The notes under the pieces are model-generated. The model searched no databases, was not told the origin of the DNA, and saw nothing but the letters and a program-made list of their open reading frames with translations. From IMG/VR virus record IMGVR_UViG_3300035698_012898, positions 1 to 64,000 of that record: a DNA stretch of 64,000 nt, one strand, 5' to 3'. Position numbers and translations under genes: made by a program. This DNA comes from a virus. Below, piece after piece: positions 11,716 through 17,024 of the stretch; position 1 is the first letter of the stretch; each line of letters starts with the position of its first letter.

Positions 11716-11997
11716 TCAGTACGTTACACGCGCCGTGTTGAACACCTCGACCAGCCTGGGCACCAGAACCCGCGTGAGTATGCGGGCCCGTGTCCGTGCC
11801 TCGTTCAACCCGATAGCTGACTTGCGTAACAAAGCCCGCTCACGAACGATGAACTGCTTCGCAGCCTTGCGGTTAGCGAACCGCTGACAGTACGTGCTAC
11901 CAGACGGAGACACCACTGCAAACGACCACCGATTGTGTGCTACCTCGTGACCCTGTACAAGCCACCCTTTGAACTGGCGCTCACTTGTCTTTTTCAT
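11716..11997 (-). CDS. Small early hypothetical protein
   Basis: Strong AGGAGG RBS, 93 aa. Confidence 0.75.
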   Translation of the reverse strand: MKKTSERQFKGWLVQGHEVAHNRWSFAVVSPSGSTYCQRFANRKAAKQFIVRERALLRKSAIGLNEARTRARILTRVLVPRLVEVFNTARVTY

Positions 11998-12036: not shown

Positions 12037-12345
12037 CTAGCGGTCGCCCCATCCAAGCAAGTCAGAAATCACACCGGGCAGATAGCCGATCTGTGTGCCT
12101 TCACTCAAGTACAAGATGTCCGGTTCGTCGCCGTCCTTGAACTCGAACTTCGGCGAACCTTGCTCACTTTCCCATTCTCGTGCATGCGCATTCCGCGCTG
12201 CCTCTTTACGAGCATCTTCATCAACAAGGATAACCTCGTTGATACTATACTCCATTGCCCAACGCGGCTGCATTGCAAGCCGAACCTTAACGTCATCGTC
12301 TAGGCCGTCAAGCTCTTGCCGAAGGCCACCTACCGTGATACTCAT
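12037..12345 (-). CDS. Small acidic early hypothetical protein
   Basis: CAGGAG RBS; ITVGGLRQELDGLDDD.KVRLAMQP.W pattern common in phage small proteins. Confidence 0.8.
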   Translation of the reverse strand: MSITVGGLRQELDGLDDDVKVRLAMQPRWAMEYSINEVILVDEDARKEAARNAHAREWESEQGSPKFEFKDGDEPDILYLSEGTQIGYLPGVISDLLGWGDR

Positions 12346-12359
12346 TGTTCTTTCTCCTG

Positions 12360-13455
12360 TGTTTGCCGTTCTTTCTTGTAGTCATTTTATGAACGGAATC
12401 TCACCGTTGTCAGGCATGGCCCATTTAAAAGCGCCCCACTGATTTCCCGCAGCGACGGGGTTCCATACAAAAGCAGATTCCATCACTAGAATCTGACCCT
12501 CTTTTCGGGCTACCGACTCAGGGATTATTGCGCATGGGGACTTGTATGCGCGGACTCTCGATTAAGACGTTCTAGGGGCCCTGTCACCAGATTAGGCAGG
12601 CGTTTGCCGTCACGGCCATCGCTCATACTTCGAGGCGCGGCCACCGGCGGTACCTGCTGTACCCTGTCTCTTTCCTCTGACAGTCTACATAAAATGACTA
12701 CAAGAAAGAACGAACAATGTCTTCCTCTCGACACCCTATCCAAACCAAACAAGGCGTCTAGGGGAAGACGTTGCTTAGTAGGACCAAAGTCCGTTCACCA
12801 ACGCCCTTCCTCGCGCTATTTCTACACGTTCATTCGCGTGAGCTTGCACCGTTGATGCATCCCAAAGATTGTTGTCCATCGCCGTACCGCTTGACCGGGC
12901 TCCATCTATCCGATGTGCCCTGTCCTGCCGCTACGTTCTACATGCTCACCGATTCTCGGCGACCGATTACCACACTGGGTGACCCCGTTACGCTGTCTGC
13001 CTCTGGTACTCGACGTACACTATGGGCTGCCACGTTTTTTGCAGTAGGTTTGGTGTCGTTCACCGGAAGCTGTCTGGGCTGTTGGCACTCGACGCGCGCT
13101 TATCCCTGCCACTTCCGTCCTCCAAACCGCGTCCCGAACTTCATTCCCGCTCTGGGCACCCGACTGGATTGCGCTGTAACCTTTCTACTGCTTCGAGGTA
13201 GGTCGTCCGCCAGACGTTAATGCAACTCCATCTATCAGATGTGTTGCATCTTAATAGCCCGACGATTCTCCGAGGGCTGTCTGACCGATGTGGTCTGCCG
13301 TCCTCGTTCTTGAGCACGCAACGATGACTGGCTCCTATAGCCTCGTCATCTTCTGCGAACCGCGTCCGCTTTGTTTCCCTATGCTTTGCAGCCCCGTTTG
13401 GGAGCCTGCGCCGCTACCAGCCTGCCGTGTCCTGTAAGGAGCGGAGATGCTAACC
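12360..13455 (-). ncRNA. Candidate large structured non-coding RNA region
   Basis: About 1.1 kb with no credible minus-strand ORF in a gene-dense genome; many nested stems with purine-rich loops on the minus strand; a duplicated hairpin module; downstream of the early promoter. Confidence 0.6.
12367..12712. repeat. Perfect 25-bp inverted repeat enclosing 296 bp
   Basis: CGTTCTTTCTTGTAGTCATTTTATG (12367-12391) / CATAAAATGACTACAAGAAAGAACG (12688-12712). Confidence 0.97.
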
Positions 13456-13634
13456 TTACCCGGCCTCTTTGACAAGCCTTCTCGCTGATTCATATGTCAA
13501 TACGTTGTCGCTTGCTAGCGACCCTATCGTCGGCGGAGTACCGTCCTTCGCCCCACCGACCGCTTCAATTGTCTTGGCCTGCCTTGTCAAGTGCCGTGGG
13601 CCAAACCGGCACGACCGCCCGAAGGCGGTTTCGG

Positions 13635-13871
13635 CTACGTCGTATATAGAACATACCATTCATTGTTATGCACACGAACCTGATACGTGCCGTCACCATG
13701 ATCACGTAGCCGCGCAAAGTCAAACCGAAGCCAGATCGCCTTTGCTGCATCACTTGGACAGTCCTCCCCGCGGAAGCAATTGCTAAGCGTATACGCAATA
13801 CACCGAGTGACCGATCCGAAAACCTCGTCAATCTTCTTTGTCCTATTTTTCGCTATCGTTCTTACCTTCAT
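13635..13871 (-). CDS. First early gene, hypothetical
   Basis: CAGGAGG RBS, ATG 13871 (MKVRTIAK...), immediately downstream of promoter. Confidence 0.75.
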   Translation of the reverse strand: MKVRTIAKNRTKKIDEVFGSVTRCIAYTLSNCFRGEDCPSDAAKAIWLRFDFARLRDHGDGTYQVRVHNNEWYVLYTT

Positions 13872-13920: not shown

Positions 13921-13949
13921 AGTATAGCAAAAAAAACGTCAAAAGTCAA
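13921..13949 (-). promoter_or_regulatory. Strong sigma70-type early promoter
   Basis: TTGACT-N17-TATACT with extended -10 TG and A-tract upstream. Confidence 0.85.
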
Positions 13950-14025: not shown

Positions 14026-15078
14026 TCACGTCAATGCCAGCCGTTTAGCCGCGCGAATGACATTAAAAAGAACGTCCCTAGGACTCCCTCCAAGGTAAGT
14101 ATTTTCCGCAGCGTCATTTATAAGAGGGGTCCATGGCCGTGACAGCAAGACGTTTGCACATCCCGCGTCCACAAGACTCCTTGCTACCATCTCCGCTGCT
14201 TCATCCGCACCATAATCCAACGCCACAATTATCCTTGTAAACCTTTGCGTCAACGTCCGCGCTTGAGCACCAGATACCGTACTCCCCAGCAGCGCCACTG
14301 CCATACCGGGCAGAGCAAGCACATCCATCGGACCCTCGACCAGCACGATTAACTTCCGCACAGGATGCACAGCATGCAGCCCATACACCGTCCCGCCTTT
14401 GCCAACACCAGGAGCATGATAACTCTTTGTCGGATACCCTTTACGCGTGCCTTTGAAGTCCGTAGTGCGCGTTGTCCAATGTACGAGCCGATCATCCTTG
14501 TATTCTGGAAACACAATGTGACCTTGGTAACGATCACCAATAGGCTTCCGTTCTACAAACAAAAGCCCATACTGTTGATAATGGGCGGGACCGAAGCCCC
14601 GCCCATGGAGATAGCGACGACCTTCCATTGCAGAAGGTGACGCGATGGGAACACATCCAAGAGGCAACAACACAGTTGGTTGTTCACCTTTCATTGGCAA
14701 AGCCGCCTTCAGAAGAAGACGCATACCACTTTCTAATGGACGATGATCATCTACCCATAGCTTAGCATACTGTCCTTGTCCAGATACTAACTCTGACGCA
14801 CGTTTAATAGCATCGTCTCTCGTAAGCTGTTCCAAGTCCATCAGCAAGCCGACAAGATTCCTCGCATATCCGCAACTGAAACAGTGCACCACTGCTTTCC
14901 GCACATTAAAGTATAAATGCCCAAGCGTCCCGCAAGAAGGGCAATCCGAAATCATTTCATCAGGATTCCCGGATGATACTGCACCAAGTGTCTCCTCACC
15001 AAAGTCTATCATGCAATCTGTAGCAACCCCCATAGGCGTTCCACCAATATACATATCCGCATCGCCTACAAAGCTCAT
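14026..15078 (-). CDS. DNA primase (Zn finger + Toprim)
   Basis: CPSC..HLY..HCFSC; LVEGPMDVL, ALLG, ALDYGAD; likely start at ATGA overlap with helicase stop. Confidence 0.9.
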   Translation of the reverse strand: MSFVGDADMYIGGTPMGVATDCMIDFGEETLGAVSSGNPDEMISDCPSCGTLGHLYFNVRKAVVHCFSCGYARNLVGLLMDLEQLTRDDAIKRASELVSGQGQYAKLWVDDHRPLESGMRLLLKAALPMKGEQPTVLLPLGCVPIASPSAMEGRRYLHGRGFGPAHYQQYGLLFVERKPIGDRYQGHIVFPEYKDDRLVHWTTRTTDFKGTRKGYPTKSYHAPGVGKGGTVYGLHAVHPVRKLIVLVEGPMDVLALPGMAVALLGSTVSGAQARTLTQRFTRIIVALDYGADEAAEMVARSLVDAGCANVLLSRPWTPLINDAAENTYLGGSPRDVLFNVIRAAKRLALT

Positions 15079-16472
15079 GGTATGTAACCTCCCTTCGACC
15101 ACCCTTGCGTTGGGCACTGTCGGATAGTCATCGTACTTGGGTCAACAAAGCAATCCACCACAGTTGTGTCCCCACCTCCGAGCCTGTTACCAAGCATAGC
15201 CATTCGCATCCTACCCTTTTCCTTTTCAGCGTCCGTCTGACAGATACCAATTATTACATCAGCAATCATTACCTTCTGAAGATCCGCAGACACATCACTC
15301 AGACGAATGGTTTGCTTTGTGTAACTCGCACGATTTGTTTGGGAGGCTGTCCAGACAGCGCAGTTGAAGTCTGAAGCAAGTTGACGTAGCTCCGTAACAG
15401 TGTGGCCTATATCTGGTGAATCCCATTTCTGCTTCTTGCACACGAGCAAGTCTGCATAATCTACCAGCACCACGTCCATTTTAAACCCCGACTCTGCTTC
15501 TATTGCTCGTAGCCAAACGTACAAATCCCCCATCGTTGCACAATTCGATCCCCACTGCTTGATAAACACTTGACCTTTAAGAGCTATTGTTGCTCCAGCT
15601 ACCGCTGCCCTATGCGCCAATGGTTCTGCCGCCAAGGCATTAACGGCTATACCCGTATGATGTCCATCCAACCGCATAGCGTAATCTTTTTGACTAAGCT
15701 CAAAGGTAGCTATTGCAACATTATTTCCAAGAGCAGCCGCAGAAGCAGCAGCTTGTGCTAGAAACAAACTCTTGCCCTTTTTAGTTGGCCCCATGATAAG
15801 ACCAAGTGTGCCTATTTCCAAACCACCACGCATTAGTTCATCAAGGATTGGTATGCCTATTGGTGCGTGTTTAGCCATCTTCTTATGCTCTGCATATAAG
15901 CGCAACTTACTTACAGGGTCATTATAATTTATACCAAGATCCTTACTAACATCCTGACCGCGTACTGCTGCCTCAACCTTGCTTAGTATGCCTGTAAAGT
16001 CATCTTGATCCCATAACTTTACACTTGCTAACAAGGCATCACGAACACGGCTCTTAGTCAAAAAGGTTCCTACGGTTTTCTTAACGTGTTCGGCAGTTGT
16101 ACCGTTCAACGTAGGCCGTTGCACCAGGTCCCGACAAACACGTATAGCGTCTTCGTATTGTCCGTGTCTTGCAGACTTGGCAGGCATCACGTTGTACATG
16201 CGGACTAACTCAGAAAGGACCCCCACGACTCCGACAGGCTTGTTACTGGATGTACCATACAATGTTCGTGCTGCATGATAAATAATTGCATGCGTAGAAA
16301 TTGTAAATACATCTGCTCCTACTACTGGCAATAAGAGTCCTGCAAACTGCAAATCAAACAAGACAAGCCATACTACTGCCTGTTCAAACTCTTTGCCGTA
16401 CTCACGTTCAAATTGAATAGGCACTGGGGAAGTACCTACATCAACAGGGATATTCAAATCAACCTTTGTCAT
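15075..16472 (-). CDS. DnaB-like replicative helicase
   Basis: GPTKKGKS, TFELS, LVDYADLL, WTASQTNR. Confidence 0.92.
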   Translation of the reverse strand: MTKVDLNIPVDVGTSPVPIQFEREYGKEFEQAVVWLVLFDLQFAGLLLPVVGADVFTISTHAIIYHAARTLYGTSSNKPVGVVGVLSELVRMYNVMPAKSARHGQYEDAIRVCRDLVQRPTLNGTTAEHVKKTVGTFLTKSRVRDALLASVKLWDQDDFTGILSKVEAAVRGQDVSKDLGINYNDPVSKLRLYAEHKKMAKHAPIGIPILDELMRGGLEIGTLGLIMGPTKKGKSLFLAQAAASAAALGNNVAIATFELSQKDYAMRLDGHHTGIAVNALAAEPLAHRAAVAGATIALKGQVFIKQWGSNCATMGDLYVWLRAIEAESGFKMDVVLVDYADLLVCKKQKWDSPDIGHTVTELRQLASDFNCAVWTASQTNRASYTKQTIRLSDVSADLQKVMIADVIIGICQTDAEKEKGRMRMAMLGNRLGGGDTTVVDCFVDPSTMTIRQCPTQGWSKGGYIP

Positions 16473-16723
16473 ACGCCATTAGCTCCCATCGCTTTTGCTA
16501 CTTACTATCTCCAAAGTTTCGTAGCCCGCACTATATACCCCCTCATACTTTATCTCTTATATGATCTCCTTTATTGTATACCGTATACACCATGTATACT
16601 TCTTTTTTTCTTAACAACTTTACCAAAAAGACTCTACCTATAATAAGCGTTTTGGAAGGGAAAGTTGAACAAGTATTTTTGACTAAGCATAGCTAACGTG
16701 TTGCGGCGTATAGAGTTAGCGTC

Positions 16724-16750
16724 GGAAAAATATAAAGCGGCCTTTATATT
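16724..16750 (-). terminator. Possible terminator after lysis genes
   Basis: AATATAAAG-GCCG-CTTTATATT then TTT, directly after holin-like stop. Confidence 0.4.
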
Positions 16751-16751
16751 A

Positions 16752-17024
16752 TTACATTTTTCCCTTTGAAAACAAGACTTCCCAAGGCCAGTGCCATAAG
16801 TAAACGCCACCACCCCGGTAGTTCTTTCTCAGGTTGTCAATAGCTTTGTACACAGCAGGTACAATAGCCACAAGCAATACCTGCCAATTGGCTGCGAAGG
16901 TATCCCATGCAGCAGGCAAGTCTTCCGAAGCGACAACGACGGCAGAGCCCACACCAAACGTGGCGACTGCCCACACCCAAACGGCTTTCCATAAGGTTAC
17001 TGCTAAGCTGTACTTCATTCCCAT
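16752..17024 (-). CDS. Holin-like membrane protein
   Basis: Two hydrophobic segments, adjacent to endolysin. Confidence 0.6.
   Translation of the reverse strand: MGMKYSLAVTLWKAVWVWAVATFGVGSAVVVASEDLPAAWDTFAANWQVLLVAIVPAVYKAIDNLRKNYRGGGVYLWHWPWEVLFSKGKM

Follow-up and report, generated by a model that had tools for sequence, protein, structure and literature searches.

A perfect 25-bp inverted repeat at the 3′ end of the largest non-coding stretch of a phage genome, possibly an RNase III-type boundary stem

Why should a tightly packed phage genome carry, directly ahead of a small gene, two perfectly complementary 25-nt stretches with 296 nt between them, and would such an arrangement act as DNA or as RNA? 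The locus lies in a 64,000-nt stretch, hereafter the window, which is the whole stretch of DNA that was analysed and comprises positions 1 to 64,000 of the IMG/VR virus record IMGVR_UViG_3300035698_012898 (78,715 bp, estimated to be ~75% complete). The arms (12367-12391 and 12688-12712) are complementary at 25/25 positions, as a sequence-only reading of this DNA had claimed, and together with the sequence between them they form an element of 346 bp. Pairing between the arms is purely Watson-Crick, with zero G-U pairs. Across the 78,715-bp record this is the sole exact inverted repeat of at least 14 bp at spacings of up to 5 kb; the runners-up are five repeats of 13 bp, about the chance number for a sequence of this size, and a search of the record that allowed up to 5 mismatches found no further copy of an arm. 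The 25-bp repeat is real and far beyond chance. Its distal arm ends at 12367, just short of the ribosome-binding site of the next gene (AGGAG at 12358-12354, AUG at 12345), a position that the same reading had also described correctly.

All clear genes lie close together on the minus strand. The 1.29-kb gap from 12346 to 13634 is by far the largest non-coding stretch of the record, and the repeat closes its 3′ end (Table 1). Upstream of the gap lie the genes for DnaB (15075-16472) and primase (14026-15117), and from there the order on the minus strand is the promoter at 13949-13921, a small ORF, the non-coding stretch, the repeat, a 102-aa ORF (12345..12037), two more small ORFs, and a MoxR-type ATPase with its vWA partner. 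Stop codons occur throughout all six frames between 12300 and 13700, the eight longest ORFs in and around the 12346-13634 gap had no match in Pfam or PHROG, and no tRNA or tmRNA genes were found. Sequence conservation identifies the 102-aa ORF as a real gene: the protein collection contains eight homologues, the best of them (P0002) at 62% identity, 18 positions are invariant, and its family occupies 49 loci in IMG/VR. Read outward, each arm holds an ATG followed by codons for TTRKN, which we treat as coincidence because a ribosome-binding site is absent from both arms.

Table 1 Features of the repeat locus, listed from 5′ to 3′ on the minus strand
Feature	Positions	Strand	Description
Near-consensus promoter	13921-13949	−	TTGACT, 17 nt, TG-extended TATACT; would drive small ORF, non-coding stretch and repeat
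Upstream small ORF	13635-13871	−	78 aa from ATG; good ribosome-binding site; no family match
Candidate type II hammerhead	13573-13636	−	Predicted cut between 13613 and 13612; begins inside stop codon of small ORF 13871-13635
Non-coding body upstream of repeat	12713-13612	−	Folds beyond shuffles, minus strand z = −4.3 vs plus strand z = −2.2 (rough values, 20 shuffles each strand)
Imperfect hairpin	12713-12775	−	~26 bp, five of the pairs G-U; immediately 5′ of proximal arm
5′ flank CAUUGUU	12713-12719	−	7 nt, complementary to 12349-12343; also 3′ end of hairpin 12775-12713
Proximal (5′) arm	12688-12712	−	Read on transcribed minus strand
Interior	12392-12687	−	296 nt, non-coding; folding energy about that of shuffled sequence; composition no outlier
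Intrinsic-terminator-like hairpin	12474-12495	−	9 bp, then short U run; inside interior
Sigma-70-like promoter match	12384-12413	−	CTGACA, 18 nt, TAAAAT; 10/12; −35 in interior, −10 in distal arm
Distal (3′) arm	12367-12391	−	Stops 8 nt short of next gene's Shine-Dalgarno; includes −10-like hexamer
Bulge between two helices	12350-12366	−	17 nt; phage's own ribosome-binding site cassette CAAAC-NN-AGGAG-AAAG
AACAAUG	12343-12349	−	Contains start codon of ORF 12345..12037; pairs with 7-nt flank
Downstream gene	12037-12345	−	102 aa; conserved small phage protein family of unknown function

We favour an explanation at the RNA level, to which we assign a probability of about 0.45: the arms would form a long-range duplex of the RNase III-substrate type, marking where a structured leader or non-coding RNA gives way to the downstream operon. 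The standard substrate of bacterial RNase III is a perfect duplex exceeding two helical turns. The stem is uninterrupted and exceeds the length of about 20 bp looked for in such a substrate, and both arms lie on the coding strand between a strong promoter and the next gene, an arrangement from which we infer co-transcription. Transcription from the promoter would run on the minus strand through the small ORF, the hammerhead, ~900 nt of structured RNA and the repeat; the arms would then pair into the perfect duplex, looping out 296 nt, 8 nt before the Shine-Dalgarno of the next gene's cassette, and host RNase III could cut both strands. Such cleavage would separate the upstream non-coding RNA, its 5′ end made by the hammerhead, from the mRNA of the downstream operon, which would keep a short unstructured leader. 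Without any cleavage, the stem would still insulate the ribosome-binding site from the structured RNA upstream, and either outcome might affect expression. The nuclease would have to be the host's because the phage record is without an RNase III gene of its own, a point against this reading; neither RNase III nor RtcB genes were found in the 78.7 kb.

Predicted folds of the minus-strand RNA are dominated by the repeat. In partition-function folds of six contexts, from 437 to 1327 nt, the 25-bp stem had a pairing probability of 0.94-0.97, and the Shine-Dalgarno of ORF 12345..12037 was mostly unpaired (0.05-0.28). The initiation region of this ORF ranked 69th of 73 genes for pairing, among the most open, and in these models the stem exposes rather than conceals the ribosome-binding site. 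The sequence-only reading had offered four options for the repeat, and among them the RNase III stem is the best supported, with a transcribed strand, a long non-coding leader, a stem that dominates the predicted folds and a position abutting the ribosome-binding site.

Pairing resumes past the 25-bp stem, where 12719-12713 can pair with 12349-12343 over 7 bp that stop at the G of the AUG. The repeat is accordingly one of 25 + 7 bp, broken on one side only by the 17-nt bulge, and an extension of 7 bp arose in 0.3% of flank shuffles (p about 0.003). That the extension stops at the AUG favours a reading at the RNA level, since an element acting as DNA has no reason to respect a translation start. 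Sequestration of the AUG by the extension was considered and rejected: once the hairpin at 12775-12713 is included, the local hairpin wins and the 7-bp helix has a probability of 0.02 in full-length folds, and the initiation region is open, as its rank indicates. This hairpin is specific to the minus-strand RNA because five of its pairs are G-U, and together with the stronger minus-strand folding of the ~900 nt upstream (Table 1) it speaks for action as RNA. The extension may represent an alternative pairing or a relic of the repeat's origin.

The cassette within the bulge also stands 5′ of the gene starts at 11997 and 11053 (repeat family D1). A near-identical initiation cassette, CAAAC-NN-AGGAG(G)-AAAG, is common to three consecutive early genes (12365-12343, 12018-11995 and 11074-11051 on the minus strand), and two of these genes share 31 nt at 94% identity, their first three codons included.

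The extension to the start codon also enters into a reading with little or no function, in which replication switched templates and so placed an inverted copy of ~32 nt from the 5′ untranslated region of gene 12345, reaching as far as the ATG, 300 nt upstream, the arms being perfect because the event was recent. A Watson-Crick-only repeat is equally expected from recent duplication or from constraint at the DNA level, and to that extent the perfect arms, free of G-U pairs, speak against the RNase III stem and for such a duplication. The similarity runs to the ATG and then ends, as that of a copied leader would; the element is missing from all 49 loci of the homologues; and its interior has no excess structure. 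However, the copy is without the 17-nt cassette, so that a second precise event would be needed, and a perfect 25-bp duplex in the leader of a highly expressed early transcript would rarely be neutral, as RNase III would act on it anyway. We regard a young inverted duplication as unlikely.

What the repeat encloses is less distinctive than the repeat itself. The sequence-only reading had described a multi-hairpin interior, and the short complementary pairs that it listed are all present, but they do not go beyond chance: on the minus strand the interior alone folds with −101.6 kcal/mol, compared with −97.7 ± 5.4 kcal/mol for dinucleotide shuffles (z = −0.73), and 44 of the 200 shuffles equalled it. 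The plus strand of the interior gave z = −2.15, and 200-nt windows sliding over 12400-12699 gave z = −0.3 to −0.6. The z of −5.2 for the whole element derives from the 25-bp stem, because the interior alone falls so close to its shuffles. The proposal that the stem releases a discrete RNA of ~300 nt with a special fold finds no support in these values, and the case carries a caution, in that a striking chain of hairpins inside a repeat is what composition alone yields. The interior contains no credible reading frame and no family match. Its G+C content and skews lie inside the range of the genome, at the 89th-93rd percentile, and we rejected a foreign origin on these grounds; the signs of its base skews agree with the rest of the genome.

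Two sites within the element bear on which RNAs would carry it. The terminator-like hairpin at 12495-12474 is weak, with three G-C pairs; the promoter-like site downstream of it is of a kind (10/12 matches) that occurs just 15 times genome-wide, both strands counted. If both sites work, few RNAs would carry both arms, which counts against the RNase III stem. The arms could then belong to separate RNAs, the non-coding RNA ending at the interior terminator and the mRNA starting in the distal arm, and the free proximal arm with its flank could act in trans as an antisense to the leader and start codon. The terminator-like hairpin precedes the promoter-like site at 12413-12384, as it would if one unit ended and another began here, and the complementarity spans both ends of the predicted leader, the AUG included. 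Yet the terminator is weak, with its three G-C pairs and short U run, the promoter matches at 10/12 with an 18-nt spacer, and an mRNA starting near 12377 would retain only ~11 nt of the arm, for which the full 25-nt pairing would be unnecessary. Antisense action between separate RNAs therefore appears improbable.

The same promoter-like site invites a reading at the DNA level, in which a recombinase of the host or of the unsampled part of the phage genome flips the 296-bp interior and so moves a single −35 to the −10 copy of either arm. The layout fits known invertible promoters, with a perfect repeat, an interior of ~300 bp and a position directly upstream of a gene, and the site straddles the edge of the interior, the −35 within it and the −10 in the arm, at a match quality rare in this genome. 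As in fimS of E. coli and the invertons of Bacteroides, a perfect inverted repeat bounds a segment of ~300 bp with a promoter-like site upstream of a gene, but no recombinase was found in the present record, which for the tyrosine and serine families means no Phage_integrase or Resolvase match in 78.7 kb at ~75% completeness, and here the repeat continues to the start codon, which an inverton leaves unexplained. The plus strand offers no genes for a flipped promoter to drive, the arms, as read from the sequence, are without the internal dyad symmetry usual in recombinase core sites, and the interior has the skew sign of the genome, as expected of a fixed orientation. We consider an invertible segment quite unlikely.

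Searches for relatives bear on the age and mobility of the element. No relative carrying it was found in IMG/VR, INPHARED, the GTDB genomes or the JGI metagenomes, the scans excluding public contigs close to the present one; there was no DNA match among the INPHARED phages, and no exact arm occurred in IMG/VR. With a 21-mer from the arm as probe, 185,579 species genomes (one each) and 241 million records of JGI metagenomes yielded five single, unpaired chance matches, all of them at the starts of unrelated genes. These gene starts encode the same first residues as the outward ATG-TTRKN reading of the arms. The primase, DnaB, the MoxR ATPase and the 102-aa protein, each used singly to find close relatives of the phage, led to distant loci or to none, and the distant primase loci were without a comparable gap, repeat or ribozyme. 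Among the 49 IMG/VR loci of the ORF 12345..12037 family there was neither DNA similarity upstream of the gene nor a comparable repeat, and at most loci no more than 50 nt separate the gene from the preceding ORF. A 16-bp repeat in one locus (L018) was rejected as a counterpart, being low-complexity sequence in an unrelated high-G+C phage.

These results also weigh on the suggestion that the element is a miniature mobile element (MITE), here one of 346 bp with 25-bp terminal repeats, inserted in the leader. Its size and the length of its terminal repeats are typical, and its arms contain an outward-facing −10-like hexamer. Transcribed MITEs, such as the Correia elements of Neisseria, are cut by RNase III, and Correia elements resemble the present one in their terminal repeats of ~25 bp, their small size, their outward promoter-like hexamer and the duplex RNA that they give if transcribed. 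The element differs from them in being a single copy in its record, without target duplication and without relatives: its plus-strand flanks, TTTGC and AACAA, share no direct repeat of at least 3 bp, even though perfect arms would imply a recent insertion. No rve, DDE_Tnp_1 or TnpB zinc-ribbon match was found in the record, the 21-mer of the arm met only the five unpaired gene starts in public collections, and the composition is not foreign. We therefore hold an inserted MITE to be very improbable, and the suggestion is not borne out.

Least probable of all, and hardly credible, are a retron-like msr/msd bracket, a replication origin and an assembly artefact. The repeat brackets ~300 nt of non-coding sequence as the a1/a2 repeat of a retron msr-msd does around a non-coding RNA of a few hundred nt, and the sequence-only reading had raised this likeness; here, however, no reverse transcriptase adjoins the repeat or occurs in the record (no RVT_1 match in 78.7 kb), and the neighbouring gene encodes the conserved 102-aa protein, which is not a reverse transcriptase, so the parallel lapses. 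That reading had itself noted the absence of reverse transcriptase, recombinase and transposase from the window, and for the families tested this holds across the whole 78.7-kb record. An origin could be suspected from the primase and DnaB genes immediately upstream, but the region has no iterons and is richer in G+C than the genome, and the AT-rich stretch lies instead upstream of dnaB. As to an artefact, a 25-bp repeat would be shorter than the final k-mers of a metagenome assembly, and its flanks are unique sequence.

The RNase III stem gains context from the other end of the non-coding stretch. The best Rfam match of the whole window is Hammerhead_II at 13636-13573, with 31.3 bits against a gathering threshold of 37 and a window-wide E of 0.021; nothing in the window reached its gathering threshold, and between 11900 and 14100, at E values up to 10, there was only the hammerhead and noise, with no family scoring in the repeat. 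In the Rfam alignment the candidate has the conserved core, the type II order of stems and an H at the cleavage site, with the GAAA element, a GUC cleavage triplet, loop-closed stems III and I and a stem II of 3 bp. Its score falls short of the threshold because both C3 and G8 are changed, to U and A, a joint change that retains the pair. C3 and G8 pair with each other, and in natural hammerheads of an active type they have covaried to U3-A8 (Perreault et al., PMC3088659), and the same core covariation has been described elsewhere (PMC4209133). Type II hammerheads are common in phage intergenic regions, may have a stem II of one or two pairs and typically use a pseudoknot between loop I and the 3′ tail (PMC3088659); the sequence of the candidate permits six Watson-Crick pairs there. 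The segment 13636-13573 is probably a type II hammerhead, as predicted from its sequence, and the transcript is probably processed at its 5′ end too, because this candidate begins the same non-coding stretch that the repeat closes.

The two ends together raise a larger proposal, that a large phage RNA of a new kind has its 3′ boundary at the repeat. It would be structured and non-coding, ~0.9-1.25 kb long and made early in infection from a strong promoter; a type II hammerhead with a variant core would free its 5′ end, RNase III would free its 3′ end at the long-range stem, and it would have no relative in Rfam or the collections searched. This we regard as doubtful. If the stem is an RNase III site, the ends of a long non-coding RNA would be set by two mechanisms, a self-cleaving ribozyme and a host nuclease. 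The role of self-cleaving ribozymes in phage genomes is unsettled, and a transcript with both a ribozyme and a duplex boundary beside a conserved gene family would make a convenient test case, although an element private to one metagenomic phage has limited wider importance as long as relatives and RNA data are lacking.

Among known systems, the RNase III stems of 16S and 23S rRNA offer a close likeness in architecture: there, too, complementary stretches separated by hundreds to thousands of nt pair over more than two helical turns and so bound a non-coding RNA within a longer transcript. The RNA looped out here is 296 nt and shows no excess structure or family match, and the stem is perfect whereas the rRNA stems are mismatched; the present stem is known from sequence and predicted folding. 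The sites R0.3 to R1.3 of T7 and the N-leader and sib sites of lambda resemble the repeat in position, as double-stranded elements of early polycistronic transcripts just 5′ or 3′ of cistrons, and they separate RNAs and alter translation or stability. Those sites, however, are hairpins formed locally, 20-30 bp long and interrupted by internal loops, several of them in T7, whereas the repeat forms one long-range perfect stem, and that it is the sole such stem in its genome, unlike the recurring RNase III sites between T7 genes, counts against the RNase III reading. The possible terminator and promoter enclosed by the stem have their nearest parallel in lambda sib, where a terminator lies inside an RNase III structure.

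Self-cleaving ribozymes situated just upstream of phage genes, of the type II hammerhead and twister-sister classes, lead to the same outcome that we propose for the stem, cleavage of the RNA a few nt ahead of a ribosome-binding site; the repeat, by contrast, is not a ribozyme, since no family scores in it, and it would need a protein nuclease. An identical twister-sister (37.9 bits, threshold 34) occurs in three mosaic related phages (L056 4918-4985, L053 594-661 and L028 4573-4640), in two of them 15 nt before the AUG of the homologue of ORF 12345..12037 and in L028 with one extra gene between. This hints at cleavage of the RNA shortly ahead of these genes as a recurring theme; it is a hint only, because all three instances come from a single lineage.

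Some further observations concern the surroundings of the repeat. The upstream non-coding RNA contains an 18-nt module twice, at 12900-12917 and 13226-13243, the copies alike at 17/18 positions and sharing the same inner hairpin within different outer stems; a scan of IMG/VR for the module returned two chance matches only. The family of ORF 12345..12037 has an invariant QIGYLP motif (alignment A1), with weak matches to the HIRAN domain in three of nine members (best E = 0.045) and a DUF6225 match in two, and from its sequence it may have a HIRAN-like fold. The stretch 16500-16800, upstream of dnaB, is the most AT-rich near the replication genes (G+C 34-36%), and as a candidate origin or promoter region it is preferable to the repeat.
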